Below, one piece after another: positions 26,930-42,747 of a stretch of DNA of 64,000 nt. This stretch comes from Gammaproteobacteria bacterium. GTDB taxonomy: Bacteria > Pseudomonadota > Gammaproteobacteria > Eutrophobiales > Eutrophobiaceae. A program made the position numbers and the translations under genes. The stretch spans positions 1 through 64,000 of the forward strand of contig OZ244905.1 in NCBI GenBank assembly GCA_965221695.1, given 5' to 3'. Each line of letters starts with the position of its first letter. Within the stretch, counting starts at the first letter, position 1. The notes beneath the pieces were generated by a model. It had not been told where the DNA came from. It was given only the letters and a program-made list of their open reading frames with translations, and did no database searches.

Positions 26930-26945
26930 ACCCGGATTGTCCAGT

Positions 26946-28463
26946 ATGTTTCAAACTCTTCCGGTTCTCAGCTTACTGATCTGGTCCCCCATACTGGGCG
27001 GCATGTTCGCATTGCTGATGGGTGACCGGCAGCGGGAGGCAGTCAAATTATTTGCGCTGATAATATCCTCTTTTGTTTTCCTGTTATCGACATTGCTGTA
27101 CTTTCGCTTCGATACGACTACTGTCCTGATGCAGTTTGTCGAATACTCCGGATGGATAGATACGTTCAATATCAATTATCACCTCGGCGTTGATGGCATC
27201 TCAGCGCCGCTGATTCTGTTGACCACGTTTACCACCGTGCTGGTGATCATCGCCTGCTGGGTGGTGATTGAAAAAAGGTTATCTCAGTACCTGGCCGCGT
27301 TCCTGATCCTTGAAGGTCTGATGAATGGGGTATTCGCATCTCTTGATGCGATCCTGTTCTACTTTTTTTGGGAGGCTATGCTGATACCCATGTTTTTGAT
27401 CATAGGAGTATGGGGCGGGCCGCGGCGCATCTATGCCACCATCAAGTTTTTCCTGTACACCTTTCTGGGGTCGGTATTCATGTTGGTGGCCTTGCTGTAC
27501 CTGTACTCGAAGATGGGAAGCTTCTACATCTTTGACCTGTACAAGCTGCCTTTATCGCTTGCCGAGCAGAAGTGGATATTCATTGCGTTCCTGCTCGCGT
27601 TCGCAGTGAAAATACCCATGTGGCCGGTCCACACTTGGTTGCCCGACGCGCATGTGGAGGCGCCTACCGGTGGCTCTGTGATTCTGGCAGCAATACTATT
27701 GAAGATGGGCGGATACGGATTTATTCGTTTCAGTCTTCCCATCACGCCGGATGCCGGCGCGGCAATGGCTGATTTCATGATCCTGTTGTCATTGATCGCG
27801 ATCGTCTATATCGGCTTTGTTGCCCTTGCTCAACAGGATATGAAAAAACTGATTGCCTACTCGTCCGTCTCCCATATGGGTTTTGTCACGCTGGGATTTT
27901 TTATCGTGTTTTCTATTATGGAACAGGCCGGGTCGAACGTGGATGCGGCGCTGGGTCTGGCTGGAGCGATGATGCAGATGATCTCCCATGGCCTGATATC
28001 AGCCGCTCTGTTCCTCTGCGTTGGCGTGATGTATGACCGGGTGCATAGCCGGATGATCACCGATTATGGTGGCGTCGCCAATACCATGCCTGTATTCGCG
28101 TCGTTTATGATGTTGTTTGCCATGGCCAACGCCGGTTTGCCCGGCACTTCCGGGTTTGTCGGTGAATTCCTGGTCATCCTGAGCAGTTTTCGCGCCAACG
28201 CCTGGATTGCCATAATCGCCGCGACTGTCCTGGTACTGGGCGCAGCTTACACCTTATGGATGTATAAACGCGTCATTTTCGGCGCTGTAGCCAATGAGAA
28301 AGTGGCCGGCTTGCAGGATATTTCACTGCGTGAGACTTCGTTCCTGTTATTACTCGCCATCGCAGTGTTGTTGCTGGGTCTGTGGCCGGCGCCGTTGTTC
28401 GAAGTAATGGATGCCACACTCAATCATCTCGTGGAGCAGATATCTCAATCCAGGATTAACTGA
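26946..28463 (+). CDS. nuoM: NADH-quinone oxidoreductase subunit M
   Basis: GVDGIS, FAVKIPMWPVHTWLPDAHVEAPT, AYSSVSHMG. Confidence 0.96.
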   Translation: MFQTLPVLSLLIWSPILGGMFALLMGDRQREAVKLFALIISSFVFLLSTLLYFRFDTTTVLMQFVEYSGWIDTFNINYHLGVDGISAPLILLTTFTTVLVIIACWVVIEKRLSQYLAAFLILEGLMNGVFASLDAILFYFFWEAMLIPMFLIIGVWGGPRRIYATIKFFLYTFLGSVFMLVALLYLYSKMGSFYIFDLYKLPLSLAEQKWIFIAFLLAFAVKIPMWPVHTWLPDAHVEAPTGGSVILAAILLKMGGYGFIRFSLPITPDAGAAMADFMILLSLIAIVYIGFVALAQQDMKKLIAYSSVSHMGFVTLGFFIVFSIMEQAGSNVDAALGLAGAMMQMISHGLISAALFLCVGVMYDRVHSRMITDYGGVANTMPVFASFMMLFAMANAGLPGTSGFVGEFLVILSSFRANAWIAIIAATVLVLGAAYTLWMYKRVIFGAVANEKVAGLQDISLRETSFLLLLAIAVLLLGLWPAPLFEVMDATLNHLVEQISQSRIN

Positions 28464-28465
28464 AT

Positions 28466-29914
28466 ATGTCCGTGACTGCCGAAATCCTGTTTGTATTGCC
28501 GGAGCTTGTCCTGTTGACGCTTGCCTGTCTGACCCTGGTTTGCGATGTGTTCTGGGGCAAGCAAAATAAACCTTGGACTTGCTTGCTGGCCCAGACCTCC
28601 CTGGCGATTGTCATGGTTCTCGTGATCTGGCAGTATCCCGATGCGCGCGTCGCGGTATTCAATCAGCATTTCATCCTTGATCCTTTGAGCGCCGTGCTCA
28701 AGGTCACTGTCTGCGCAGCTTCCATATTTGTGTTTATGTATTCATACCATTACTTTCGTCAGCGCGATCAGCTACAGGGAGAATATTTCGTAATCGGATT
28801 ATTTGCCGTGCTGGGGATGCTGGTCATGATCTCCGCGTACAGCATGCTGACCGTTTACCTGGGCCTTGAACTCATGTCGCTCTCCCTGTACGCAATGGTA
28901 GCGATGAACAAGGAGTCGGGAACCGCCTCCGAGGCGGCTATGAAATACTTTGTCCTGGGCGCTCTGGCGTCCGGTTTACTGTTATACGGAATTTCAATTT
29001 TATACGGTGTCTCCGGTACGCTCATACTTCCGGAACTTGCCGCGCATCTCGGTTCGCCTGTTGACAACAGGGTAGTGTTCTTGTTCGGGTTGGTGTTCGT
29101 GGTTGTCGGTATCGCATTCAAGCTGGGCGCGGCGCCGTTCCACTCCTGGCTGCCTGACGTGTATGAAGGCTCTCCTACGGCGGTAACCCTGTTCCTGGCT
29201 ACGGCGCCGAAAGTGGCCGCTTTTGCCCTAGCGGTACGTCTACTTATCGACGGCATGCAGCCACTGCACGTTGACTGGCAGGGAATGCTGATTATTCTAT
29301 CTCTGTTGTCTATGGCAGTCGGAAATATCATTGCCATCGCTCAGTCCAATATAAAACGGATGCTGGCTTATTCCGCCATCGCACACGCCGGTTTCCTGAT
29401 CCTCGGTATTTTGCCGGGCCTGCAGCCCGAACAGGGCGTGACATATGGCGGCGCTTTGTTCTATGTGATTGCTTATGTGATCATGAGCATGGGCGCTTTC
29501 GGTTTCATCATACTGGCAGGTCGCAAGGGGCATGAAGCTGATAACCTTGATGATTACAAGGGCCTTGCTGATGCCAGCCCCTGGTTTGCCTTGATCATGT
29601 TGCTGTTCATGTTCTCCCTGGCTGGTGTCCCCCCGTTTCTGGGGTTTTGGGCGAAGTGGCATGTGATCAAGGAAGTGGTTGCAATCGGACATACCTGGCT
29701 GGCAGTCTTGGCTGTTATCTTTTCTGTGATTGGCGCCTATTATTATTTGCGGGTGGTCAAGCTCATGTATTTTGATCAAGCGGAAACTGCGCATGATATT
29801 AGCGCAGACACCCAGGTTAAAGCGTTGATAAGCCTAAACGGTCTGGCAATCCTGGCGTTGGGTCTTGCGCCAGGTGGACTCTTGAATATCTGTGCTTACG
29901 TATCGGGATTTTGA
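28466..29914 (+). CDS. nuoN: NADH-quinone oxidoreductase subunit N
   Basis: EAAMKYFVLG, FKLGAAPFHSWLPDVYEG, KRMLAYSAIAH. Confidence 0.96.
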   Translation: MSVTAEILFVLPELVLLTLACLTLVCDVFWGKQNKPWTCLLAQTSLAIVMVLVIWQYPDARVAVFNQHFILDPLSAVLKVTVCAASIFVFMYSYHYFRQRDQLQGEYFVIGLFAVLGMLVMISAYSMLTVYLGLELMSLSLYAMVAMNKESGTASEAAMKYFVLGALASGLLLYGISILYGVSGTLILPELAAHLGSPVDNRVVFLFGLVFVVVGIAFKLGAAPFHSWLPDVYEGSPTAVTLFLATAPKVAAFALAVRLLIDGMQPLHVDWQGMLIILSLLSMAVGNIIAIAQSNIKRMLAYSAIAHAGFLILGILPGLQPEQGVTYGGALFYVIAYVIMSMGAFGFIILAGRKGHEADNLDDYKGLADASPWFALIMLLFMFSLAGVPPFLGFWAKWHVIKEVVAIGHTWLAVLAVIFSVIGAYYYLRVVKLMYFDQAETAHDISADTQVKALISLNGLAILALGLAPGGLLNICAYVSGF

Positions 29915-29955
29915 TCCTGCTGCTAAGAAATCCGGGCTGATCCGGCCAAAATCCA

Positions 29956-30249
29956 ATGTCTGCGGGCAATATTACCTGGCTGTTGATTATTTCTGCGGTT
30001 TTTCTGGCAAACTTTCCCTGGTTTTACCGAGGTTTCCTGCTGTTCATAAGGCCCGAGAAGAAGAAAATCTGGATGTGCCTGCTGGAATGGTTGTTGTTGT
30101 ATTTTCTGGCGGGTTTCCTGGCGCTGGGAGTTGAGAAGAAAATGCAAGGGGAAACCCATGCCCAGGACTGGGAATTTTATGCGGTCACCTTTTTTTTATT
30201 CCTGGTGTTTGCCTTTCCCGGTTTGATTTATCGGTCTGCCATACGTTAA
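29956..30249 (+). CDS. Small membrane protein downstream of nuoN (DUF2818-like)
   Basis: LANFPW...QDWEFYAVT...VFAFPG, in the usual position after nuoN. Confidence 0.8.
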   Translation: MSAGNITWLLIISAVFLANFPWFYRGFLLFIRPEKKKIWMCLLEWLLLYFLAGFLALGVEKKMQGETHAQDWEFYAVTFFLFLVFAFPGLIYRSAIR

Positions 30250-30280
30250 GGACACTCTGATTAAGTCAGAGTTTCCTTAA
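30246..30280. mobile_element. Minimal 27 bp derivative of the 151 bp MITE (two termini joined)
   Basis: TTAA-GGACACTCTGATTAAGTCAGAGTTTCC-TTAA. Confidence 0.7.
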
Positions 30281-31123
30281 AATACCCGGCGCCGGCGCTG
30301 CGATTTGCTGCCCCATCGCCACCTCTGCGCCGGGAGCGACCCAGTTGATTTTATTCGGTTCTGTCAGCAGGATGACCGTAGATCCCATATTGAAGCGTCC
30401 GATTTCATCTCCCTGTGCGAATGCCATGCCAGGCTCATAGCGCCAGCAGGCAAATTCCCGTTGTCCGGCAGGAGTCACCTGGCCATGCCATACCGTTTCC
30501 ACCGAACCTACAAATATCGCGCCAATGAAAATAACGGACATCATGCCGATAGCTGTGCGAAAAGTCGTTATCACGCGCTCATTGCGGGCAAACAATCTAT
30601 CCACCCGTTGCGTGTTGCGAAGGTTGACGGAGAATAATTGTCCGGGAATATAGGCCATGTAACGCAATTCTCCGTCGATAGGCATATGTGCCCGGTGGTA
30701 ATCACGGGGAGACAGGTAAAGTGTAATATAGTTGCCGTTCCGGTAATATCCGATATGTTCAGGATCTCCGTTCACCAGTTCGGCAAGTGAATAATCCTTA
30801 CCCTTGGCCTGCAACAGCCGTGTGTTTTTCAGCGCCCCTTTAGCGCTGATGGCTCCATCAACTGGCGAAATCAGGCCGCCTTCGGTTCGGGTTATGGTTA
30901 GCCGGGAGGGTTTAAGGGCACGAGTAAAAAACTCGTTAAAGCTCGCGTAACTATGAACTGAAGACTCCTCGGCCAAGCTCAGGTCGACCTTGTATTTCCA
31001 TATGAATAATCGGATCAAGGCATTTTTCCAGGGACGCCAGGGACAACGGGTTGCCTTATATATCAGCCTGGATAACTGAATCAAAAATCCCAGTTTCACG
31101 GATTCTCGGGTCATTATGGCCAC
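30266..31123 (-). CDS. psd: Phosphatidylserine decarboxylase proenzyme
   Basis: SFNEFFTRAL, SPVDG, YLSPRDYHR, LFARNERV, GRFNMGSTV self-cleavage motif. Confidence 0.93.
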   Translation of the reverse strand: MAIMTRESVKLGFLIQLSRLIYKATRCPWRPWKNALIRLFIWKYKVDLSLAEESSVHSYASFNEFFTRALKPSRLTITRTEGGLISPVDGAISAKGALKNTRLLQAKGKDYSLAELVNGDPEHIGYYRNGNYITLYLSPRDYHRAHMPIDGELRYMAYIPGQLFSVNLRNTQRVDRLFARNERVITTFRTAIGMMSVIFIGAIFVGSVETVWHGQVTPAGQREFACWRYEPGMAFAQGDEIGRFNMGSTVILLTEPNKINWVAPGAEVAMGQQIAAPAPGILRKL

Positions 31124-31564: not shown

Positions 31565-32809
31565 ATGACTGATTATGTTGCACATAACCTGCCTGACGTG
31601 GATTTGACGGATCACTTGCGCGGGATTCTGGAGCAACTGGATGCGTCCAATGTTGAATTGAAGGACTGTCTTAGTATGCCGTCTGCGGTGTATACCTCCG
31701 AGGAGTGGTTCGAGTTCGAGAAGAGGGCTGTCTGGGATAGGGAGTGGATATGTGTCGGACATATCGGCGTTATCCCCCGGCCGGGTGACTATGTCTCCAT
31801 CACTATCAACGAAGATCCATTACTGGTACAACGGAAAGATGACGGCGGCGTACGCGTGATGTCTGCCGTGTGCCAGCACCGGGGCCATGTGCTGGGCGAG
31901 GAAAAAGGCAATACCCGAATGTTTACCTGCCCCTTCCATGGCTGGTCTTACGATGAAACGGGCAAACTGGTCAGCGCCCCGGAGATGGACACCCACGCCA
32001 GCCTGGCGGAATTACAACAGAAACATTGTTTGCCGACGTTGCGCACAGAAGTCTGGAACGGTTTTATATTCATTAATATGGATGGCCAGGCCAAGCCGCT
32101 GGCGCCGCGCTTGAAACGTCTTACCAAGGAAATTGAGAACCATAAGCTTGCTGAGATGGGTGGCGTGCCTACCGTGGACTGGGGGCCAAGCCCGTGGAAC
32201 TGGAAGTTCATGCACGAAAATGCGATAGAACCCCACCACACCTGGTACCTGCACAAGGGTCCCCATGATTTTGCCCCCTCCACGCTGGCCACGTTTGCCG
32301 AATGGGACGATTTTGATGATGGCGCTATCTACCATCCCACCGGATTCCTGGAATTGGACGGTAATTTTACCGCTGCATTTCATTGTCTGTTCCCGGTGAT
32401 CGAGGGATTAACCGAAAATGAACGCAAGCGGGTGATGTTTGCGTGTATTCTACCCAACCTGTTCTTCGGCTGTGTGCCCGACGGCTGTTTTTATTACTGC
32501 ATTTTACCTCAGGGCGCCAACGCCATGACCATACGGGTTGGTTTTATCTATCCCAAATCCACGTTGCGGATGGATAATTTCGATATTATCTTTGAGTCTG
32601 TTGTGCATGGTCTGACAACGCTGAATGATCAGGATACCGGGGCCAATACCAACACTCACAGAGGATTGCGTTCACGTTTTGCGCCACGCGGACGCTATGC
32701 GCCAAAAGAGGCGACATTGCCGCAATTCAACCGCTGGCTGATAACCCGCTACAAGGCTTATGCGGCGGAACTTCAAGGGCGCAAGCAAAGAGGGAGGCGG
32801 GTAGCCTGA
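31565..32809 (+). CDS. Rieske non-heme iron oxygenase, alpha subunit
   Basis: Rieske CQHRG...CPFHGW and mononuclear-iron NWK..HENAIEPHH..YLH...D motifs. Confidence 0.92.
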   Translation: MTDYVAHNLPDVDLTDHLRGILEQLDASNVELKDCLSMPSAVYTSEEWFEFEKRAVWDREWICVGHIGVIPRPGDYVSITINEDPLLVQRKDDGGVRVMSAVCQHRGHVLGEEKGNTRMFTCPFHGWSYDETGKLVSAPEMDTHASLAELQQKHCLPTLRTEVWNGFIFINMDGQAKPLAPRLKRLTKEIENHKLAEMGGVPTVDWGPSPWNWKFMHENAIEPHHTWYLHKGPHDFAPSTLATFAEWDDFDDGAIYHPTGFLELDGNFTAAFHCLFPVIEGLTENERKRVMFACILPNLFFGCVPDGCFYYCILPQGANAMTIRVGFIYPKSTLRMDNFDIIFESVVHGLTTLNDQDTGANTNTHRGLRSRFAPRGRYAPKEATLPQFNRWLITRYKAYAAELQGRKQRGRRVA

Positions 32810-32903
32810 TTCCCGTTGCTGTCCATTACACCTGATAATTCAGAGACTGTGAGGATTGATCAGAAACATTCGTATAGCGAGTCGACAAAAAGGTAATCAT
32901 TCG

Positions 32904-33650
32904 ATGAGTAATGAACTTCAGGAAATCAAGGGACTACTGGAAAAACTGGACGTCAAACTGGGCCGCCTGGAGGATGTGGATGCGATACGGCGGCTTATCG
33001 TCACATACGCCAGGGGGTGCGATCGTGGCAATGACCCGGAAATTATCGGTCCTTGTTTTGCAGAGGACGGTTCCTGGGAATGCAAGGGTTTCGGCAGATA
33101 CCAGGGCCGTGAGCGGTTGGCAAAAGGACTGCGCGGGATAGCCGGCGAGAAAATCTGGTGGTCGTTGCACTACATGATCTCCCCCCTGATAGATATTGCC
33201 CCGGATGGCAACAGCGCCACCGTCTTCTGGTATCTGTGGGAATCGGCAACAGCGCCCAACCCGCACACCGATGAAGCGGAGCCACACTGGATTGGCGGCA
33301 CCTATGACTGCGAGTGTGTAAAACAGGATGGGCGCTGGCTGTTCCAGTCCATGGAGTTGAAGCTGAACATGGTGAGCCCCTACGACGAAGGCTGGGTAAA
33401 AGCCAAATTTTTAGATGGCAGCCGCAACTCCCCATACCTGATGAACTTGGAGCAAGGCGAGTATTACTGGTGCGCCTGCGGTCGATCGAAAAAACAGCCG
33501 TTCTGCGACGGATCCCACACGCAAACAAAACGCGAGCCGGTTAAGTTTGAACTGGACGAGTCCCAACATGTGGCCTTGTGCGGTTGCAAATACTCTAAGA
33601 CCAAACCCTGGTGTGACGGGTCACATTTGAAACTCAACCTGGATAAATAA
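32904..33650 (+). CDS. SnoaL/NTF2-like domain fused to a tandem CDGSH [2Fe-2S] domain
   Basis: N-terminal LEDVDAIRRL..YARGCD...SLHY..SPLI...GTYDCE...DGRWLF. C-terminal CACGRSKKQPFCDGSH and CGCKYSKTKPWCDGSH. Confidence 0.85.
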   Translation: MSNELQEIKGLLEKLDVKLGRLEDVDAIRRLIVTYARGCDRGNDPEIIGPCFAEDGSWECKGFGRYQGRERLAKGLRGIAGEKIWWSLHYMISPLIDIAPDGNSATVFWYLWESATAPNPHTDEAEPHWIGGTYDCECVKQDGRWLFQSMELKLNMVSPYDEGWVKAKFLDGSRNSPYLMNLEQGEYYWCACGRSKKQPFCDGSHTQTKREPVKFELDESQHVALCGCKYSKTKPWCDGSHLKLNLDK

Positions 33651-33812
33651 TCATAATGCGTTTCAGACACGGAGAGCACAGAGGATTTTGCGCCACGAGG
33701 AACACAGAACCAGGGTCGCGCCGTTCCCACCCCCGTTCAGTGTCATTGGGGGCAGGCTGAAAAGTGGGCGCTCAGTCAAACCCTGTGTCGCCGGAGGCGA
33801 CACATCATAATT

Positions 33813-35468
33813 ATGGTAAGTAGAAGAGATTTCCTCAAGACTTCACTCCTGGCCACTGGCGCCCCCCTGGCCGCGCGCGGTGTCGCGACTCAAGATTTCC
33901 CTGCAAAACCTTTGCCTGGTACCCTGACGCTTACCGAGTTTAACCAGGCTGTCGCAGAATTGCGCAAAGCAGTTGGTGACCGTTGGGTGTTTACCGATGA
34001 TGAAACGGAACTGAGAACATACCGGGATGTTTATTCAACCACGCCTGATGAAGCGCACATGCCGGCTGCTGCGGTTGCGCCCAGGAGCGTCGAAGAGATA
34101 CAGGCCATCCTTAAGGTAGCCCGGGATTATCGCATCCCTCTCTGGACTATCTCCAGGGGCAAGAATTATGCTTATGGCGGGCCGGCGCCGATGAAACCCG
34201 GCTATTTTGTCCTCGATTTGAACCGCATGAAGCGTATCATTGAAGTGAATGAAGAGCATGGCTATGCGGTGGTTGAACCGGGAGTGAGTTATTTTGACCT
34301 GTATAACCATTTGCGGCAGCGAGGCAGCAAACTGTGGATAGATCCGGCGGCCCCCGGCTGGGGTAGCGTCCTGGGCAATCTATCCGAACACGGCGCGGGT
34401 TACACCCCTTATGGCGATCACCTGCTGATGAATTGCGGAATGCAGGTGATCCTGGCAGACGGCACGGTGGTTGACACCGGTATGGGCGCACTGACCGGAG
34501 CGGCGACATCCAGTCTGTACAAATATGGTTGTGGCCCATGGGTCGAGGGTATGTTTACCCAGTCAAATTTCGGCATCATAACCAAGGCGGGAATCTGGTT
34601 GATGCCGGAGCCACCCGGATACCGGCCGTACCTGGTGACTTTTCCTCGAGAGGAAGACCTCTACCAGATCACTGAGGTAGTAGGCCCGCTGCGACTCAAT
34701 ATGTTGATACCCAATGCCGCGACCACGGTAGGCCTGATCTGGGAAGCCGCGCCCCGGGTAACCCGGAAGCAGTATTACACCGGCGCCGGCCCCATGCCTA
34801 TGCGTCACCGTCAGAAGATGGCAGAGGATTTGAACATCGGTATGTGGAATTTCTACGGCGCCTTGTACGGACCGAAGCCGATTATGGATAACAACTGGAA
34901 AATCCTGGAAGAAGCTTTTCGCAGCATCCGCGGCGCCCGTTTTTTCTTTGAAGGAGACCGGCCTGGCGATCCGGCCTGGCGTTACCGGGCGCAGCTCATG
35001 CGCGGCACACCGAACATGACAGAGTTCAGCCTGATGAACTGGGTAGGCAGTGGCGCGCATATTGATTTTTCACCCCGCTCGCCGGTAACCGGCGAAGATT
35101 CAATGCGGCAGTTCACCCTGATCAAGGATCGGGCGAACGAATACGGTTTCGATTACATTGGTGAGTTCCTGGTAGGCTGGCGCGAACTTCTGAATATCTT
35201 TCAACTGGTGTTCGATCGTCTGAATGATGATGAGCGGCGGCGCGCGCATGACTGTTTTGGCCATCTAATCGACGATTTTGCCGAGCACGGTTATGGCGAG
35301 TATCGCACTCACCTTGACTTTATGGATCAGATCGCCGGAACCTACAACTGGAATGACGGCGCCCTGTGGAAATTGCATCACAGGCTGAAACAGGCGTTGG
35401 ATCCTATTGGCATTCTGTCTCCAGGCAAGAGCGGTATCTGGCCGGCGCCACAGAACAGACTTGGTTAG
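33813..35468 (+). CDS. Tat-exported VAO/PCMH-family flavoprotein (4-alkylphenol oxidising subgroup)
   Basis: Tat motif SRRDFLK, ISRGKNYAYGG, VEPGVSYFDLY, GYTPYGDH, QSNFGIITK, GEYRTH, DPIGILSPGKSGIWP. Confidence 0.9.
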   Translation: MVSRRDFLKTSLLATGAPLAARGVATQDFPAKPLPGTLTLTEFNQAVAELRKAVGDRWVFTDDETELRTYRDVYSTTPDEAHMPAAAVAPRSVEEIQAILKVARDYRIPLWTISRGKNYAYGGPAPMKPGYFVLDLNRMKRIIEVNEEHGYAVVEPGVSYFDLYNHLRQRGSKLWIDPAAPGWGSVLGNLSEHGAGYTPYGDHLLMNCGMQVILADGTVVDTGMGALTGAATSSLYKYGCGPWVEGMFTQSNFGIITKAGIWLMPEPPGYRPYLVTFPREEDLYQITEVVGPLRLNMLIPNAATTVGLIWEAAPRVTRKQYYTGAGPMPMRHRQKMAEDLNIGMWNFYGALYGPKPIMDNNWKILEEAFRSIRGARFFFEGDRPGDPAWRYRAQLMRGTPNMTEFSLMNWVGSGAHIDFSPRSPVTGEDSMRQFTLIKDRANEYGFDYIGEFLVGWRELLNIFQLVFDRLNDDERRRAHDCFGHLIDDFAEHGYGEYRTHLDFMDQIAGTYNWNDGALWKLHHRLKQALDPIGILSPGKSGIWPAPQNRLG

Positions 35469-35481
35469 TTACGGGAGGAAA

Positions 35482-35931
35482 ATGTTTGTTGTCAAAGAGA
35501 GACGGACGCTACAGCCCAGAGTAAAAATGATATTTTTTACTCTGGGCCGCAGTGTCTCACTACTCTTTGTGGCTTCTCTGTTAGCGCTGTCGTCCGGCTG
35601 CGGTAATGATGGACCTGCCAGTTCGGAAAAGCCGGCGCTGGCGAGCAACATTCCCGACACAATGGAGGATGTCCATGACGGCAGAACATTGTTCGAGTTG
35701 CACTGCATTGCTTGTCACGGCGCAGGGGCAGGCTATCCGGGAACCATGCGTTTGCAGGAAAGAGTGGGCGAGCAACAGGCTGCGCTATTGGACCGGGATA
35801 ACCTCCCGCCTGACTATATAAAACTTGTGGTGCGGGAAGGGTTTAAACTGATGCCGCCTTTTCGACCCAGTGAGTTGTCCGACGAGCAGTTGCATGAGCT
35901 GGCTGCTTATATAGCTGGAGAGGTTGACTGA
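35482..35931 (+). CDS. Monoheme cytochrome c (PchC-like), predicted lipoprotein
   Basis: CIACH, VVREGFKLMPPFRPSELSD (PchC-like), and a lipobox-like LSSGC after a hydrophobic stretch. Confidence 0.85.
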   Translation: MFVVKERRTLQPRVKMIFFTLGRSVSLLFVASLLALSSGCGNDGPASSEKPALASNIPDTMEDVHDGRTLFELHCIACHGAGAGYPGTMRLQERVGEQQAALLDRDNLPPDYIKLVVREGFKLMPPFRPSELSDEQLHELAAYIAGEVD

Positions 35932-37415
35932 TGGATATGGAAACGGTCACCCTGTCGGCGCAGGCACGCGCGATAGCCGAACGAGTGCGGAACTTGCGCG
36001 ATTATCTCGACTTGCTGGCCGAACACGGACAGTGTATCACCTGGCCGGAGACAGTCATGCCCGAGCCCGATATCCGCAAGGTCGTGGTTGCAGCGGGACG
36101 CGATGCATTGGCGGGGCCGGCCATACTGTTTGATCGGATACACGGTTATCCGGGTAAACGACTCGTTGTCGGCGTACACGGCAGTTTCTCCAATATTGCC
36201 CTGTTGCTGGGCAAACCAAAAGGCGCCGTTGTTAAAGAATTGTTCTACGAACTAGCTGGACGCTGGGGTTCAGCGCGGCCGCTGATCAACAGGGTGGAAC
36301 CCGAACATGCGCCGGCGCTTGAGAACCGGGTCGAAACAGGCATCAACTTGTATGACTTGTTGCCGCTATATCGCATCAATGCCATGGATGGCGGATTTTA
36401 CATTGCCAAGGCCAATGTGGTCAGCCGTGATCCTCGCGACCCGGACAATTTTGCCAAACAGAATGTGGGAATTTACCGGATACAAGTACACGGTCCGGAC
36501 AAAATAACCGTTTTATCCGTTGCGTCTCATGATTTGGCGCAACAGATCCGCATGGCTGAAACGGATGACGCGCCGCTGGATATTGCCGTGATGATTGGCA
36601 ACCATCCAGCCATGGCCATGTTTGCCGCGACTCCTGTCAACTACAACGAATCGGAGTATGCCTATGCCTCACAAATGATGGGAAGCGCTATTGAACTGAC
36701 CCGGTCCGGCAACGGGTTGGACATCCTGGCTGGCTCGGAGATGGTCATAGAGGCGCGCTTGATGAACAACCAGCGTAACCTGGAAGGGCCGTTTGGTGAA
36801 TTCCCGGGCAGCTACAGCGGCATCTGGCAAGTACCGCTGTTCCAGGTTACCGCAGTTTCATTTCGAACTAATCCCATCTTTGAGAACATCTATATCGGTA
36901 AAGGTTGGACTGAACACGACACCCTGATTGGCCTGAACACCAGCGCCCCCATTTATGCCCAGTTAAAGCAAAGTTTCCCGGAAGTCGTGGCAGTGAATGC
37001 CTTGTACCAGCATGGTCTCACCGGGATTATCTCAGTGAAGAACCGCTTTGCCGGGTTTGCAAAGTCGGTGGCTATGCGCGCCCTGGGCACGCCACACGGT
37101 TTGATGTACCTGAAAAATCTCATCCTGGTGGATGATGATGTTGACCCGTTCGACCTCAACCAGGTGATGTGGGCGCTGTCCACGCGCACCCGCGCCAACG
37201 ACATCATCGTGATTCCGAACATGCCCATGGTAATCATCGACCCGGCCGCGGAAATTCCGGGCAAGGGTCATCGTCTCATCATCGATGCTACCAGTTTTAT
37301 GCCGCCGGACCCGGCCGGCGCCGATGTGAAGATCGTGGCGCCGCCGAGGGGGCCTGAAATTGATGAATTGGCAAGCTTCATTCAACAACTGCAAAAAGAG
37401 GCGGAAAACCGATGA
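35931..37415 (+). CDS. UbiD-family non-oxidative hydroxyarylic acid decarboxylase subunit C (VdcC/BsdC-like)
   Basis: GVHGSFSN, LPLYRIN..DGGFY, QNVGIYR, EGPFGEFPGSYSG, GWTEHD, TPHGLMY, DPFDLNQVMWALSTR. Confidence 0.9.
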   Translation: MDMETVTLSAQARAIAERVRNLRDYLDLLAEHGQCITWPETVMPEPDIRKVVVAAGRDALAGPAILFDRIHGYPGKRLVVGVHGSFSNIALLLGKPKGAVVKELFYELAGRWGSARPLINRVEPEHAPALENRVETGINLYDLLPLYRINAMDGGFYIAKANVVSRDPRDPDNFAKQNVGIYRIQVHGPDKITVLSVASHDLAQQIRMAETDDAPLDIAVMIGNHPAMAMFAATPVNYNESEYAYASQMMGSAIELTRSGNGLDILAGSEMVIEARLMNNQRNLEGPFGEFPGSYSGIWQVPLFQVTAVSFRTNPIFENIYIGKGWTEHDTLIGLNTSAPIYAQLKQSFPEVVAVNALYQHGLTGIISVKNRFAGFAKSVAMRALGTPHGLMYLKNLILVDDDVDPFDLNQVMWALSTRTRANDIIVIPNMPMVIIDPAAEIPGKGHRLIIDATSFMPPDPAGADVKIVAPPRGPEIDELASFIQQLQKEAENR

Positions 37416-37654
37416 ATTGCCCGCGCTGCAATGCGGATGAGGCGAGCCGCCGCACCGAGTTCCAGGGCAGGGAAGGGGAGGAGATAGTCTGGACCATCTA
37501 TTATTGCCGGCGCTGCTGTTTTACCTGGCGCGACACAGAACCGACCGAATCCATAGATTATGCGCAACGTGACGTCTGGTTCCGTGCCGACCCGGACCAC
37601 CCGGAAAAGTATCGGCACAACATACCGCCGGCAAAACCAGACGAATGTCGTTGA
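37412..37654 (+). CDS. Decarboxylase subunit D (VdcD/BsdD-like zinc-ribbon)
   Basis: CPRC...WTIYYCRRCCFTWRDTEP, overlapping the UbiD gene by ATGA. Confidence 0.85.
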   Translation: MNCPRCNADEASRRTEFQGREGEEIVWTIYYCRRCCFTWRDTEPTESIDYAQRDVWFRADPDHPEKYRHNIPPAKPDECR

Positions 37655-37701
37655 AACACCGTATGTTACGAGGTAAAAAAAGCATAACTATATAACATCG
37701 C

Positions 37702-39147
37702 ATGTCATACCAACTGATCAAAAAATTAAGAAAAGAACTGGGTAGAGACGCGGTCTTGTCAGGCCCTGATGCGCTCACAGCGGGAGGATATTTGCAGGTG
37801 GTGGGTAAGACGCCGGTCGGCGTGGTGTTGCCGGCGGACATTGAACAGTTGCGGGCGATACTGGCCATAGCTTCTGAAAGTAATGTGTCGTTATGGGTTC
37901 TGCCCAATACCGCCGCAAATGGAGGTATAGTCAGTTCCGCAACGGATAAGGATATCCTGGTCATCGATCAATCCCGAATGAACAGGATCGTGGAGGTCAA
38001 CGCCAAGGGCGCTTTCGCGCTGGTTGAACCGGGCGTGAGTTATATTCAACTGTATGACTATCTGCAGGAGAACAATACAGGCCTGTGGGTGGACTGCGAC
38101 AGGAACGGGCTGAATTCGGTTTCCGGCAGCATCAGCGCAAGAGAGTTTGGCTACACTGCCTACGGTGACCATACCATGATGCAGTGCGGCATGGAAATCA
38201 TGCTGGCTGACGGCGAGCTGGTGCGCCTGGGCATGGGGGCCATGCCGAAAAGCAACACCTGGCAACTTGCTAAATATGCCTATGGCCCTTATCTCGATGG
38301 CTTGTTTACCCAATCCGGTCTGGGTATCGTAACCAAAATGGGTGTATGGCTGATGCCGGAACCGCCGGCATACCAGCCTTTTGCAGTAACCCTGAAGGGC
38401 GATAGTGATCTTGCCCAGGCCATTGAGATATTGCGTTCGCTCAAGGTCAACGTCATTATTCCGAACACAGTTGTAATCAGCAATACCATCCTGGATGCTG
38501 CGCCTTATGCCGCGCGGGAGGATTTTGTTGACGGCATGAAAGTCGACACCAGGCGGCTGGCTGCCTGGCATGGCTTGGGTCAGTGGACCCTGTACGGCGC
38601 CTTGTATAATACGCCGCCCAACATCGATGTTCTATGGCCGATGGCGCGCAGCGCATTCTCCGGCATTCAGGGCGCAACGGTACTCGATCTGAAAACCCAA
38701 GCCGGCAATTCGGTTCTTTCCGGCAGGGAGGCGATGATGCGCGGTCGCCCCTCTGCAGCATTCAATTACCTCAATAACTGGTCTGGTGAAGCGTACCTTT
38801 ATGCTGGATTTGTCTCCACTATTGACGGGCGGCAGGCTTTAAAGATGAATAAACTGGCCGGCGATACGGTACGCAGCAGCGGCTTCGATTATCTGACGGA
38901 ATACGCTGTTGGCTGGCGTTCCATTATTCAGCGGGTATATCTGCCCTATCAACGCGCCACAGCATCCAAGGCGGCTGCGTGTCTTGACGCGCTCATCGAA
39001 GCGATGGCGAAACGGGGATTCGGAGTCAGTCAGATCAGCGCTGGCTACCTGGATAATGCTCTGACTCGTTACGATAACGTCGGCATGGCTGAACTACGCA
39101 GCAGGCTCAAGCAGGCTCTGGACCCCAGCCACCTGTTTGCCGGATAG
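37702..39147 (+). CDS. Second VAO/PCMH-family flavoprotein, divergent, no signal peptide
   Basis: VEPGVSYIQLY, GYTAYGDH, YGPYLDGLFTQSGLGIVTKMGVWLMPEPP, LKQALDP. Confidence 0.85.
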   Translation: MSYQLIKKLRKELGRDAVLSGPDALTAGGYLQVVGKTPVGVVLPADIEQLRAILAIASESNVSLWVLPNTAANGGIVSSATDKDILVIDQSRMNRIVEVNAKGAFALVEPGVSYIQLYDYLQENNTGLWVDCDRNGLNSVSGSISAREFGYTAYGDHTMMQCGMEIMLADGELVRLGMGAMPKSNTWQLAKYAYGPYLDGLFTQSGLGIVTKMGVWLMPEPPAYQPFAVTLKGDSDLAQAIEILRSLKVNVIIPNTVVISNTILDAAPYAAREDFVDGMKVDTRRLAAWHGLGQWTLYGALYNTPPNIDVLWPMARSAFSGIQGATVLDLKTQAGNSVLSGREAMMRGRPSAAFNYLNNWSGEAYLYAGFVSTIDGRQALKMNKLAGDTVRSSGFDYLTEYAVGWRSIIQRVYLPYQRATASKAAACLDALIEAMAKRGFGVSQISAGYLDNALTRYDNVGMAELRSRLKQALDPSHLFAG

Positions 39148-39280
39148 TTATCATTTCCGTTTTCACGAGGTTAGCCCGAATATCTCACCGATTCGCTTGT
39201 CAGCATCAGATAGATGTTTGCTGTCAATAAGTTATGGTAATCTGTCGAGTATGTTGCCATTACACACTGCGCTTGATGCG

Positions 39281-39590
39281 TTCATTGCGTCCATCCCTGG
39301 ACGCAACCCTGCGGGCGACCTTCGTCGTGCAAATCGGCTGTCCTGCCGATTTGTCTCGCTGGTCTTTTTTGCGTTAGCGGGCACATGTTCATTGCACACA
39401 TCCCTGTGTGCAACCCTGCGGGCGGCCTTCGCCGTGCAAATCGTCTATCCTGACGATTTGTCCCTCAACCAGAAGAACCACTATGCTTTCGGTCGCGAGC
39501 GCCCGCGTACTGACGCACAAATCCGCCTGGAGCGGATTTGGACATCCGAAGGATGCCCGAAGGGGGCGCCCCACGGATGGGGCGCATCAA
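39281..39590. repeat. Three copies of a ~75 bp multi-hairpin unit with GGA loops
   Basis: Units at 39281-39355 and 39388-39462 (minus sense) and 39516-39590 (plus sense) share ACAAAT-stem-GGA-stem-ATTTG...GAAGG...CCCGNAGGG...CANGGATG. Confidence 0.8.
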
Positions 39591-39669
39591 AAAATCCTCA
39601 GCGATCATCACATCAATCGGTGAGATATTCGGGTTAGTTGTACGGCAAAAGCGTCAAGGATGGCTTTTT

Positions 39670-39700
39670 TAGGAACCTCTGAGCAAGTCTCAGCGGTTCC
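39670..39700. repeat. Degenerate minimal derivative of the 151 bp MITE
   Basis: GGAACCTCTGAGCAAGTCTCAGCGGTTCC hairpin at the 3' end of ubiX. Confidence 0.5.
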
Positions 39701-39708
39701 AATATGTT

Positions 39709-40299
39709 TTATTCGGATTGCCCGGCAGTTTCCTTATTCACGCCGGCCCAGCGCTTGACGATACCGGGATCGATGTCAAACAGGTCCAGTACCCGTCCGA
39801 TACTGGCATTGACGATATCATCAATGGTCTGCGGCTTGTTGTAGAATGCCGGGATAGGCGGCGCAATGATTGCCCCGAGCAGCGATACGTCGTAGAACAG
39901 TTTGCAGTGCCCCGTGTGCAGCGGGGTCTCGCGGGGCATGATCACCAGACGCCTGCGCTCTTTGAGCGCCACATCAGCAGCCCGTACCAGCAGGTTATCG
40001 GCATAGGAATGGGTGATTGCAGAAAGGGTGCGCATAGAACAGGGGGCAACGATCATGCCGTCGGTTTTGAAAGAGCCGCTGGAAATGCTGGCTGCAATGT
40101 CCTTGATATTGTGTGTCACGTTCGCCAGGCCCTCCACGCTGCCAATGGTATGTTCCGTTTCAATGCCGATATTGAGTTTGGCTGCGCCGGTCATCACCAG
40201 GTGGGTTTCGATATCCGGCATAGCCGCCAGTACCTCAACCAGGCGGATGCCGTAAGGCAAACCGCTGGCGCCGGACATGCCGATGATTATGCGTTTCAT
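39709..40299 (-). CDS. ubiX: Flavin prenyltransferase UbiX (VdcB-like)
   Basis: IIGMSGASG, ASISSGSF, APCSMRTL, RAADVALKERRRL, PRETPLH, PAFYNKP. Confidence 0.93.
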   Translation of the reverse strand: MKRIIIGMSGASGLPYGIRLVEVLAAMPDIETHLVMTGAAKLNIGIETEHTIGSVEGLANVTHNIKDIAASISSGSFKTDGMIVAPCSMRTLSAITHSYADNLLVRAADVALKERRRLVIMPRETPLHTGHCKLFYDVSLLGAIIAPPIPAFYNKPQTIDDIVNASIGRVLDLFDIDPGIVKRWAGVNKETAGQSE

Positions 40300-40611: not shown

Positions 40612-42747
40612 ATGGCTGCACAACTTAAAGAAACCTATTACGGCGGTTGCCCGCATGATTGTCCTGATACCTGTTCCATGGTATTCGAAGTTGAGGACGG
40701 CAAGCTCACCGGTGTGCACGGCAATCCCGAGCATCCGATGACCCGCGGAGGACTGTGCGTAAAACTTGATGATTATGAGAAACGTCACTACCATCCTGAC
40801 CGCGTGCTTTATCCGCTGCGCCGGACCGGACCCAAGGGCAGCAAACAATTTGAACGTATCTCCTGGGATGAGGCGCTGGATGAAGTCGTAAGTCGCTGGA
40901 AAGACATTATCGATAAATACGGCGCGCAGGCGATTGCCCCGTACAGTTACCTGGGACACCAGGGCTTGATTCATGGTCTGAACGGTGGCGACGCGTTTTT
41001 TAACAAGATGGGCGCCACGGTATGTGAACGTACCTTCTGTGGTGAAGGGTCGGCAACGGCCTGGGTGTTGACCAACGGTCCCACCAGCGGCGTAGACCCG
41101 GAAAGTTTCGCCTATTCCAAGTACATCATCATCTGGGGTTGCAACAGTGTCAGCACCAACCTGCACGCCTGGCATTATGTCAAGGACGCGAAGGATAACG
41201 GGGCCAAACTGGTGGTGATAGATCCCTACCGTTCGCGCACCGCCAGGCAGGCCGACTGGCATCTTGCCATCCGGCCCGGGACCGACGGCGCACTGGCGAT
41301 GGCGATGATCAATGTCATCATTGAAGAGAACCTGATCGACCAGGATTACGTGGACAACTATACCCTCGGCTTTGAGCAACTGGCTGCGCGGGCCAAGGAC
41401 CGCACACCGGAGTGGGCTGCCGGAGTTACCGGCCTCAGCGCTGAGGATATCCGCACCCTGGCACGTGAATATGCGGCCAATAACCCGGCCGCAATCCGCA
41501 TCGGCGTCGCCGTAGAGAGAAACTGGGGTGGTGGCCAGGCGATTCGCGCGATCAGTTGCCTGCCGTCCCTGACCGGCGCCTGGCGCGGGGTAGGGGGCGG
41601 AATTTACCAGATGACATTCTGGGAACATCCGTACAAGCTGGACGTGATTTCACAACCCCAGCTTATTCCGGAAGGCACGCGGGTCATGAACAACCTGCAG
41701 CTCGGCCGGGCGCTGACCGGCGAGTTGGACCTGGACCCGCCCATCATGTCCCTGATGTGCTGGAATTCCAACCCGGTTACCCAGGCGCCCGAAGGCGACA
41801 AGATTATCAAGGGCCTGGAGCGGGAAGACCTGTTCACGGTGTCGGCTGAACACTTTATCTCCGATACCGCGGCCTATGCGGATATCGTGCTGCCGGCCGC
41901 GATGGGCGCTGAGATGGAGGATATCATCCTGTCCTGGGGACACAACTACCTGACCTACAATACCCGCTGCGCCGAACCGCCGGGCGAGGTGTTGTCCAAT
42001 AACGAGATATTCAACCGCCTGGCGCAACGCATGGGCTATGAGGAAGACCGTTTCAAATGGTCCGACAGCGAGTGTCTGGAGCATTTCGTCGATTGGGATT
42101 CACCGGCCTGTGAAGGTCTCAGTGTGGACTACCTGCGCGAAAACGGCTTTGCGCGTATCAAGATTGGCGAGCCCCATGAGCGTGCGCCGCACAAGGAAGG
42201 CAACTTTCCCACGCCTTCTGGCAAGTGCGAGTTTTTCTCGGAAGCCGCAAGCAACGGCAACTTTGTTATTGCGCCGTTCCGGCAGATGTACGAGGAGATG
42301 CAACCCGGCAACAGCGAACCGCTGGACAGCCTGCCGGATTATGTCCCGTCGAAGGAGGCGCCGGAAACCAACCCGGAACTGGCGAAGAAATATCCGCTGA
42401 ATATCATCGCTCCCAAGAGCCATGGGTTCCTCAATTCCTGTTATGCCAACATGGACCACAAGATCAAGCGGCAGGGTGAGCAATTCGTGATGATCAGCGA
42501 GACGGACGCCGAAGCGCGCGGTATCGGCGAGGGCGACCCTGTGCGCGTCTTCAATGATCGTGGCGCGTTCGAGGTAATGGCCAAGGTCACCGACGACGTT
42601 AACCCAGGATTGGTGGTGTCATCCCTGGGCTATTGGCGGCAACTGAACAACGGCACCGCCAATGTGGTGTCGTCCGCGGACTTCGCCGACATGGGACATG
42701 CCCCCAGGGTATTCGACAGCCTGGTACAGGTAGAACGTATCGCCTGA
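40612..42747 (+). CDS. Molybdopterin (bis-MGD, DMSO reductase superfamily) oxidoreductase
   Basis: N-terminal CPHDCPDTC...GLCVK Fe-S motif, RISWDEAL, IRPGTDGAL, TAAYADIVLPA, C-terminal molybdopterin dinucleotide domain. No Tat signal. Confidence 0.9.
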   Translation: MAAQLKETYYGGCPHDCPDTCSMVFEVEDGKLTGVHGNPEHPMTRGGLCVKLDDYEKRHYHPDRVLYPLRRTGPKGSKQFERISWDEALDEVVSRWKDIIDKYGAQAIAPYSYLGHQGLIHGLNGGDAFFNKMGATVCERTFCGEGSATAWVLTNGPTSGVDPESFAYSKYIIIWGCNSVSTNLHAWHYVKDAKDNGAKLVVIDPYRSRTARQADWHLAIRPGTDGALAMAMINVIIEENLIDQDYVDNYTLGFEQLAARAKDRTPEWAAGVTGLSAEDIRTLAREYAANNPAAIRIGVAVERNWGGGQAIRAISCLPSLTGAWRGVGGGIYQMTFWEHPYKLDVISQPQLIPEGTRVMNNLQLGRALTGELDLDPPIMSLMCWNSNPVTQAPEGDKIIKGLEREDLFTVSAEHFISDTAAYADIVLPAAMGAEMEDIILSWGHNYLTYNTRCAEPPGEVLSNNEIFNRLAQRMGYEEDRFKWSDSECLEHFVDWDSPACEGLSVDYLRENGFARIKIGEPHERAPHKEGNFPTPSGKCEFFSEAASNGNFVIAPFRQMYEEMQPGNSEPLDSLPDYVPSKEAPETNPELAKKYPLNIIAPKSHGFLNSCYANMDHKIKRQGEQFVMISETDAEARGIGEGDPVRVFNDRGAFEVMAKVTDDVNPGLVVSSLGYWRQLNNGTANVVSSADFADMGHAPRVFDSLVQVERIA

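Follow-up and report, generated by a model that had tools for sequence, protein, structure and literature searches.

The window analysed here, a stretch of 64,000 nt from a gammaproteobacterium of the family Eutrophobiaceae (contig OZ244905.1), contains at positions 31565-40299 a gene block in which the components of a putative periplasmic flavocytochrome are interleaved with those of a decarboxylase dependent on prenylated FMN (prFMN). We examined this block by listing its open reading frames (ORFs) and by family scans against Pfam and NCBIfam. On the forward strand it encodes a VAO/PCMH flavoprotein with a twin-arginine translocation (Tat) signal, here called FP1 (551 aa, 33813-35468; FAD_binding_4 and FAD-oxidase_C), a mono-haem cytochrome c lipoprotein (149 aa, 35482-35931; Pfam Cytochrome_CBB3), a VdcC-type UbiD, i.e., a prFMN-dependent hydroxyarylic acid decarboxylase (494 aa, 35931-37415; NF041204), the small cysteine-rich decarboxylase subunit VdcD (80 aa, 37412-37654; NF041205) and a degenerate VAO/PCMH paralogue without signal peptide, called FP2 (481 aa, 37702-39147; Pfam FAD_binding_4 only). 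The flavin prenyltransferase UbiX (196 aa, 39709-40299; NF004685) is encoded convergently on the reverse strand. Thus, the run of six genes described by an earlier sequence-only reading of this DNA is present in full. That reading had overlooked two upstream members of the conserved block, both on the forward strand: the alpha subunit of a Rieske non-haem-iron oxygenase (414 aa, 31565-32809; Pfam Rieske and Ring_hydroxyl_A) and a protein composed of a SnoaL_4 domain (NTF2-like; 1.9e-23) and two CDGSH 2Fe-2S domains (264 aa, 32856-33650; two zf-CDGSH stretches). The degenerate nature of FP2 had likewise escaped it. The intergenic gaps from FP1 through the cytochrome, VdcC and VdcD to FP2 are 13, -1, -4 and 47 nt, and a scan for consensus promoters and terminators returned no convincing terminator inside the operon, with counts at the level of shuffled sequence and hence uninformative. 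Of five sequencing runs on record, four contain this DNA in full or in part, and none is registered as RNA.

To judge whether this arrangement is more widespread, we compared the window with 22 other genomes of the genus. An FP1 orthologue with 82-92% identity is present in 18 of them, and 16 of these 18 have an FP2-type match on the same contig, 3.6-4.1 kb downstream. According to tblastn on these stretches, the gene order in the genus is Rieske, SnoaL/CDGSH, FP1, cytochrome c, VdcC, VdcD and FP2, usually followed by the convergent UbiX and a molybdoenzyme. For a wider view, an FP2 alignment was run against one-genome-per-species contigs and the best 80 of 574 confirmed relatives were examined, a selection biased towards FP2-like genes. 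It yielded 32 loci (window included; individual loci carry L numbers below) in which an FP2-type gene is preceded by 4.2 kb or more of sequence. FP1 and the cytochrome gene lie upstream of FP2 in all 32. VdcC stands between the cytochrome gene and FP2 in 29 of the 32, and VdcD was found among the ORFs of 27 and by tblastn in the remaining two, L034 and L049. VdcC and VdcD are missing in Maricurvus nonylphenolicus (L035), L040 and L047, as well as in the shorter locus L088; in these four, FP2 follows directly after FP1 and the cytochrome gene, with overlapping start and stop codons in L035. Outside the genus, the five-gene block occurs in Cycloclasticus, Piscirickettsiaceae, Porticoccaceae and one metagenome-assembled genome (MAG) labelled Planctomycetota, and across loci the identity of VdcC tracks that of FP1. 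The module is rare: within an even sample of 400 scored genomes of the class, FP2-type matches above 700 bits were confined to the window's genome and one other.

A plasmid protein search revealed the same gene set in three cultured degraders. Plasmid pBN2 of Paraburkholderia aromaticivorans BN5 carries, in this order, a small ORF, FP1, cytochrome c, an aldehyde dehydrogenase, VdcC, VdcD, FP2 and UbiX, while pNL1 of Novosphingobium aromaticivorans and p1 of Sphingobium fuliginis KK22 show the order UbiX, small ORF, FP1, aldehyde dehydrogenase, VdcC, VdcD, FP2 and cytochrome c. The plasmid copies of FP1 are 58-62% identical to that of the window, and the product names given to the operon genes by RefSeq/NCBI are generic only. 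The plasmid operons differ from the window by the additional aldehyde dehydrogenase, by a Tat-signal protein of ~190 aa upstream of a signal-less FP1, and by having no Rieske or SnoaL/CDGSH genes directly upstream of FP1, although a conventional Rieske alpha/beta/ferredoxin set is found several kb further upstream on pBN2. Taken together, the proposal of the sequence-only reading that the flavocytochrome and UbiD modules form a unit is borne out: their order is not unique to this genome but recurs in the genus, in distant lineages and on plasmids.

FP1 matches FAD_binding_4 (3.2e-32) and FAD-oxidase_C (1.3e-10), and its best match in the PDB is a vanillyl-alcohol dehydrogenase (VAD; 8s7p) with an E-value of 1.7e-194 over residues 31-545 and ~60% identity. 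From an alignment of 122 flavoproteins of the examined loci, we read a signature of seven columns, in which FP1 shows Tyr121, Ala180-Pro181, His416 and Tyr497-Arg498. The phenolate-binding residues Tyr121, Tyr497 and Arg498, which we take to be Tyr108, Tyr503 and Arg504 in VAO numbering, are present in FP1 and in every FP1-type row adjoining FP2. Every FP1 that is accompanied by FP2 reads Tyr, Ala (once Ser), Pro, Met/Leu, His, Tyr and Arg (YAPMHYR in the plasmid copies). VAD-type copies, including a second copy in the window's genome at ~2.407 Mb, read Tyr-Asp-Pro-x-His-Tyr-Arg, and the Nitrosomonas copies of this alignment have, at the Tyr384 column, the Tyr that marks a true PCMH. FP1 has a Met at this PCMH column, so the 8-alpha-O-tyrosyl FAD of PchF is not expected for it. 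Flavocytochrome-type features of FP1 are the cytochrome c gene 13 nt downstream and Pro181, rather than Leu, at the N5 site. Within the genus, its ratio of non-synonymous to synonymous substitution rates (dN/dS) is 0.05-0.07. We also computed a maximum-likelihood tree from 64 rows (by quick search, with support only from the Shimodaira-Hasegawa-like approximate likelihood-ratio test, SH-aLRT), in which FP1 lies in a sister group of the Asp-Pro (VAD-type) copies and does not fall inside them. Because it combines the phenolate triad with the VAD-type His and the PCMH-like Ala-Pro pair, FP1 is predicted to be a 4-phenol dehydrogenase that is sister to VAD and not PchF proper.

VAD is the vanillyl-alcohol dehydrogenase of Marinicaulis flavus (PDB 8S7N-8S7W; PMC7617285). 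According to that paper, VAD used with a dye acceptor converts vanillyl alcohol, 4-hydroxybenzyl alcohol, 4-(methoxymethyl)phenol and eugenol, whereas neither p-cresol as substrate nor O2 as acceptor gives activity; it links its FAD via His387 and positions Asp150-Pro151 beside the flavin N5. Side-chain hydroxylation in the VAO/PCMH family draws on water and not on O2 (PMC7617285). The main text makes no mention of a decarboxylase partner, an operon or a gene cluster for VAD, and a figure legend names an 'oxidative decarboxylase' clade (PMC7617285). FP1 and VAD share the flavin-linking His, the Pro on the N5 side and the Tyr/Tyr/Arg set, and the VAD-type genes of the examined loci also precede a cytochrome c gene. 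FP1 differs by Ala180 in place of Asp150, by bearing its own Tat signal and by its association with FP2 and VdcCD, whereas the VAD-type loci we have seen (Marinicaulis, Hyphococcus and the second copy of the window's genome) contain a cytochrome c gene but neither FP2 nor VdcCD. PchF/PchC of Pseudomonas putida (PDB 1DII; E 1.4e-136) is a periplasmic flavocytochrome c of the same family, and PCMH has Ala-Pro next to the flavin N5 as FP1 does (Table 1 of PMC7617285). PCMH attaches its FAD via Tyr384, where FP1 has a Met in addition to the His used by VAD and the oxidases; furthermore, PchF has no signal peptide according to a preprint (10.1101/2025.09.08.674859). As an alpha2-beta2 enzyme, PCMH is not known to have a second flavoprotein gene.

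The second, VAD-type flavocytochrome of the genome lies at G000:C1:2407054-2408592 and downstream (L015:9043-11561) and has the Asp-Pro signature. It consists of a signal-less flavoprotein, a cytochrome with a Sec signal and no lipobox, and then a small Tat-signal protein, and is accompanied by neither FP2 nor VdcCD.

The cytochrome gene of the window starts at 35482, preceded by the ribosome-binding site GGGAGGA, and not at the ORF start 35407. Its product contains an LSSGC lipobox and a CIACH haem motif, and both the lipobox Cys and CIACH are kept in five orthologues of the genus; dN/dS amounts to 0.15-0.29 in four of the five orthologue pairs, while the L027 pair gave no valid dS. By sequence, we assign this lipoprotein as the predicted electron acceptor of FP1. 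The twin-arginine motif of FP1, SRRDFLK, spans residues 3-9 and is found in 13 of 13 genus copies, with the Pfam TAT_signal model scoring 20.5 bits, under its cut-off of 22.7. VdcC, VdcD and UbiX carry no signal, and the topology put forward in the sequence-only reading, in which FP1 and the cytochrome are exported, agrees with our data.

Outside the genus, FP1 lacks a signal, and a twin-arginine ORF of ~190 aa that belongs to no Pfam family lies directly upstream. This small ORF is absent from the window's genus, where FP1 has its own motif, and in the second, VAD-type system of the genome it follows the cytochrome gene. We located the small Tat-signal protein at L015:11007-11561 (G000, ~2.409 Mb), L054:5576-6160, L036:5778-6341, L035:7373-7960 and L099:8366-8995. 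In the ESM Atlas it falls among clusters of 'hypothetical protein'; in one of these, 22% of the members are annotated with a Tat signal. A tblastn search with this protein against the plasmids gave no match, yet the plasmid operons have an ORF of like size and place. The protein may serve as a Tat 'escort' for export of the flavoprotein. Past its signal, the FP1 of the window resumes with KPLP, the residues with which the signal-less FP1 of sister loci begins. We infer that the Tat signal of FP1 would have originated from an in-frame deletion that fused the signal of the small protein to FP1.

FP2 differs profoundly from FP1 in its signature columns. The window copy reads Ile/Arg-Asn/Asn/Tyr/Ser-Gln at the seven positions; the first Tyr and the Tyr-Arg pair are gone, and the His is missing in most copies (two genus copies keep it). 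The Tyr-Arg pair and the full signature set are absent from every FP2 row aligned, most copies carry Arg/Lys-Asn beside the flavin N5, and no FP2 row examined has a signal peptide. With the phenolate-binding and flavin-linking residues lost, a role of FP2 as a second phenol oxidase finds no support. FP2 is nevertheless not decaying: 69 columns are invariant across 13 sequences whose identity to the window copy goes down to 39%, the FAD-domain motifs are kept, and dN/dS within the genus (0.09-0.14, about twice that of FP1 and VdcC) indicates purifying selection. All FP2 copies, including the plasmid ones, form one group in the tree (SH-aLRT 93); its internal branching mirrors that of FP1, with branches several times longer. 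FP2 is, judging from these sequences, probably an old paralogue co-inherited with FP1. The public protein for this gene has 449 aa and begins at a later Met (93% coverage); since orthologues align from residue 1, the longer version starting at 37702 is better supported.

A structural model of mature FP1 with FP2 gave a heterodimer score of 0.94, compared to 0.00 for the best control. This mark was attained by 58 of 80 solved complexes and by 2 of 110 mismatched pairs, a calibration that applies only approximately to our model, which was built with our own alignments. Three runs agreed in at least 98% of contacts, and the predicted local distance difference test (pLDDT) of the partner was at least 89. 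Moreover, the modelled interface comprises 86 residues, among them 23 of the 69 invariant FP2 residues (odds ratio 2.75, p 0.001). The synteny and the tree fit such a pairing as well, and we propose that FP2 acts as an alpha-prime-type partner of FP1 and would reach the periplasm on the Tat signal of FP1. A comparable case is the PCMH of Geobacter metallireducens (PcmI/PcmJ/PcmG), which was reportedly described by Johannes and colleagues in 2008 as an alpha-alpha-prime-beta2 enzyme with one catalytically inactive flavoprotein. This system likewise comprises two flavoprotein paralogues and a cytochrome c; it differs by its Tyr-linked FAD and by being part of a membrane complex of a strict anaerobe, and it is not known to include VdcCD. 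PcmI, PcmJ and an 'alpha-prime subunit' are cited in two preprints, one of them 10.1101/2025.09.08.674859.

Degenerate second flavoproteins of other origin also occur behind FP1 and the cytochrome gene, at L075:3037-4572, L083:1329-3521, L085:1033-2613 and L089:9965-11506, in Binatia and in one Proteobacteria MAG (L089). A silent or altered second flavoprotein subunit may therefore have arisen more than once.

The decarboxylase components score close to or over the NCBI thresholds. VdcC scores 649.8 bits with NF041204, 0.2 under the NCBI cut-off of 650, and matches the PDB entry 7ae4 ('Phenolic acid decarboxylase') with an E-value of 9.4e-135 over residues 18-477. It is 68% identical to the genes of the plasmid operons described above, which RefSeq names VdcC, and its dN/dS is 0.05-0.07. 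VdcD, the start of which overlaps the VdcC stop by 4 nt, scores 56.1 bits with NF041205 (cut-off 30), and UbiX scores 258 bits with NF004685 (cut-off 188). The known VdcBCD/BsdBCD systems are stand-alone B-C-D operons, and decarboxylases of this class are reversible in vitro. All three subunits (C, D and B, i.e., UbiX) are present here, with the near full-length match to 7AE4. In contrast to the known systems, C and D are embedded between the cytochrome c and flavoprotein genes, and B is convergent and common to six other UbiD paralogues. UbiX adjoins the module in most loci of the genus; in Cycloclasticus and Porticoccaceae, as on the three plasmids, its gene is placed within the operon. The window's genome, however, encodes seven UbiD-family proteins and only the one UbiX at 39709-40299, beside this cluster; a second PF02441 match corresponds to a 416-aa frame, which we take to be a CoaBC-like candidate. 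As the only UbiX for seven UbiD paralogues, the enzyme is shared, and the idea that it is dedicated to this module is not supported. Because the genome also encodes PobA (572.9 bits; cut-off 538.7), VdcC/VdcD are probably not for plain 4-hydroxybenzoate; a substituted acid (methoxy, methyl or halogen) is the more likely substrate, which is a guess.

The Rieske pair bears on the question of oxygen. When compared to solved structures, only the N-terminal Rieske half of the alpha subunit matches dioxygenase and monooxygenase alphas (E ~1e-29). The FP1-type modules of the genus and of L033, L036, L075 and L089 are flanked by orthologues with 60-92% identity, and dN/dS is 0.05-0.06. The SnoaL_4/CDGSH protein matches the CDGSH protein 3tbn in the PDB at 3.2e-20, and its gene is always paired with that of the Rieske alpha subunit. 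From its domains, it is probably a beta-subunit-like partner of Rieske alpha with an iron-sulfur module of its own; we know of no description of an oxygenase beta-like subunit with a built-in iron-sulfur carrier. Besides PobA, the genome has genes for two catechol 2,3-dioxygenases that exceed their cut-off, for an intradiol dioxygenase and for five dioxygenases of the LigB type. In L038, the module is followed within a few kb by a cytochrome c oxidase operon, and in L089 genes for an HpaB-type hydroxylase and an extradiol dioxygenase adjoin it. The sequence-only reading had assumed an oxygen-independent pathway. This finds no support, given the co-conserved Rieske oxygenase pair, PobA, the catechol 2,3-dioxygenases and the c-type cytochrome acceptor. 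By tblastn, the 3.5 Mb genome contains ~18 Rieske alpha-like stretches.

An aldehyde dehydrogenase provides a chemical link between the two modules in other lineages. Orthologous enzymes are encoded within the operon in four of them; in Porticoccaceae the gene separates cytochrome c from VdcC, in Cycloclasticus it comes behind FP2. The enzymes of Paraburkholderia, pNL1 and Cycloclasticus are 54-59% identical to each other. Where the Rieske and SnoaL/CDGSH genes are present, i.e., in the genus and in L032, L033, L036 and L089, no dehydrogenase of this type was found. The lack of a PchA-like aldehyde dehydrogenase, from which the sequence-only reading had argued for a non-standard route, is thus real for this operon, where the best genomic match reaches 38%, but it is a trait of the lineage, as the dehydrogenase is built into the module elsewhere.

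With this information at hand, we favour, at a probability of roughly 55%, a catabolic operon in which a p-hydroxybenzyl-type phenol is first oxidised in the periplasm and the 4-hydroxyaryl acid formed from it is then decarboxylated in the cytoplasm. FP1 with its covalent FAD would be exported via Tat, probably as an alpha/alpha-prime heterodimer with the signal-less and catalytically degenerate FP2. In the periplasm, it would abstract a hydride at the benzylic carbon of a 4-hydroxybenzyl alcohol, a 4-alkylphenol or a vanillyl-type substrate via a quinone methide, pass the electrons through the membrane-anchored lipoprotein cytochrome to the respiratory chain and release a 4-hydroxy-aryl aldehyde. 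The conversion of the aldehyde into the 4-hydroxyaryl acid would be carried out by the operon-encoded dehydrogenase in other lineages and would require an unlinked one here, and this step is assumed for the window because neither its operon nor its genome has an operon-type enzyme. In the cytoplasm, VdcC/VdcD with the prFMN made by UbiX would decarboxylate the acid to the corresponding phenol, guaiacol or catechol. The Rieske oxygenase and the SnoaL/CDGSH protein probably prepare the substrate or convert the product in this lineage by hydroxylation or O-demethylation, and the product would then enter the catechol cleavage enzymes of the genome. Of the earlier proposal to link side-chain oxidation to ring (de)carboxylation, the shared chemical logic remains plausible, not least through the aldehyde dehydrogenase embedded in four lineages, while the oxygen independence is not supported.

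Gene content and order, signals, signature residues and synteny are read directly from the sequences, whereas the substrate, the direction of the decarboxylase and the roles of FP2 and of the Rieske pair are inferred. Several points weigh against this interpretation. Plain 4-hydroxybenzoate already has another route through PobA, which scores over its curated cut-off, and the decarboxylase may act on a substituted acid or on something unrelated. The genome has no orthologue of the operon-type aldehyde dehydrogenase, the 38% match being the best among at least eight. The Ala-Pro pair of FP1 in place of Asp-Pro means that the substrate range of VAD may not carry over. With respect to FP2, the successful heterodimer model may merely mirror the solved homodimers of the family (VAD, PCMH and VAO), and the FAD-domain motifs and many invariant residues suggest that FP2 may be catalytic and not silent. 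FP2 also follows directly after VdcD wherever VdcCD is present, even where the cytochrome or dehydrogenase gene has moved, an order that fits a link of FP2 to the decarboxylase as well as a link to FP1.

The last two points lead to an alternative that we regard as unlikely, in which FP2 is a cytoplasmic FAD enzyme serving VdcCD and the flavocytochrome consists of FP1 and cytochrome c alone. FP2 might then oxidise newly made, reduced prFMN to the active iminium form, or oxidise the substrate or product of the decarboxylase. Its position right behind VdcD in all arrangements with VdcCD, e.g., VdcC-VdcD-FP2-UbiX on pBN2 and likewise on pNL1, would agree with such a role, as would the lack of a signal peptide, the FAD-domain motifs that are invariant across the family, the Arg/Lys-Asn that replaces the usual N5 pair in most copies and a dN/dS that speaks for a functional protein. 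However, the four loci L035, L040, L047 and L088 possess FP2 directly after FP1 and the cytochrome gene without any VdcCD, and FP2 was not met without FP1 and cytochrome c in any of the 32 loci. The FP2 tree mirrors the FP1 tree, the cytochrome gene comes after FP2 and not after FP1 on pNL1 and the Sphingobium plasmid, and the FP1/FP2 heterodimer model passes, with the caveats given above.

It is also conceivable, though quite unlikely in our view, that regulation or history has placed the modules side by side and that the flavocytochrome and VdcCD act on different compounds with no common intermediate, the former oxidising one class of phenols and the latter detoxifying free hydroxybenzoic acids on its own. 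VdcBCD-type genes act alone in detoxification in other bacteria, and the seven UbiD paralogues together with many aromatic-catabolic genes indicate that clustering of aromatic genes is common in this genome; moreover, no aldehyde dehydrogenase joins the two modules in the operon of the window. Yet the interleaved order and the translational coupling persist across Alpha-, Beta- and Gammaproteobacteria through several rearrangements, the chemically expected link, i.e., the orthologous aldehyde dehydrogenase, is embedded in four other lineages, and VdcC and FP1 identities go in parallel. Lastly, the decarboxylase could run as a carboxylase in an oxygen-independent route, with a phenol being converted into a 4-hydroxyaryl acid and water providing the oxygen for side-chain oxidation. 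The in vitro reversibility of the enzyme class and the use of water instead of O2 for side-chain hydroxylation in the VAO/PCMH family (PMC7617285) would permit this. Against it speak the co-conservation of the Rieske pair with the module, the O2-dependent ring-cleavage enzymes and hydroxylases encoded in the genome, and the cytochrome c oxidase operon in L038 as well as the HpaB-type hydroxylase and extradiol dioxygenase genes in L089. Furthermore, no sign of anaerobic aromatic metabolism was noticed, though no search was aimed at it. We consider this direction highly improbable and retain aerobic decarboxylation as the preferred reading.

The surroundings of the block contain genes of other functions. 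Upstream, at 26937-31123, are two Proton_antipo_M genes, taken to be nuoM and nuoN at the end of the complex I operon, a DUF2818 gene and a divergent phosphatidylserine decarboxylase gene. The catabolic block starts ~440 nt past the latter, while other members of the genus have 2-3 kb extra in between. Between FP2 and UbiX, a 166-aa ORF at 39137-39637 has no family match, and the genus loci L023, L024 and L041 leave no room for it; for these reasons, it was not counted and is probably not a gene. On the other side, a molybdopterin oxidoreductase of 711 aa is encoded at 40612-42747; it has a 4Fe-4S domain at the N-terminus, lacks a Tat signal and scores under every NCBIfam cut-off. Its gene stays beside UbiX across the genus and does not accompany the module elsewhere.

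The component families are known, whereas neither their combination nor the FP2 family nor the small Tat-signal protein is described in the literature we searched. No description of the cluster was found there, a search that did not cover the 1999 pNL1 plasmid paper, which may discuss the genes; papers found on pNL1, pchF, p-cresol and decarboxylases, including PMC13416013 and PMC3946609, contain nothing on it. A bolder reading, which we put forward tentatively and hold to be rather unlikely, is that the operon represents an undescribed aerobic funnel in which p-hydroxybenzyl compounds are converted into phenols via prFMN-dependent decarboxylation and not via ring hydroxylation, with FP2 as a novel type of VAO-family protein that has a job of its own. 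FP2 could then be an obligatory alpha-prime subunit that enters the periplasm on the Tat signal of FP1 and tunes half-of-sites reactivity or, more daringly, a flavin oxidase acting on behalf of the prFMN decarboxylase, e.g., by activating it.

The cluster occurs in model degraders of aromatics and polycyclic aromatic hydrocarbons, i.e., N. aromaticivorans (pNL1), P. aromaticivorans BN5, S. fuliginis KK22 and Cycloclasticus. If our interpretation is true, it would constitute a route, so far unrecognised, by which p-substituted phenols derived from lignin or oil are turned into simple phenols. For biocatalysis, a cytochrome-linked 4-phenol dehydrogenase and a prFMN decarboxylase would then be available as a pair that nature has already joined. 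FP2 provides a widespread and testable case of a degenerate flavoprotein paralogue held under selection. Finally, FP1 has the Tat signal itself in this genus, while a signal-less FP1 is accompanied by a small Tat-signal protein elsewhere, and a comparison of the two situations could explain how such flavoproteins are exported to the periplasm.

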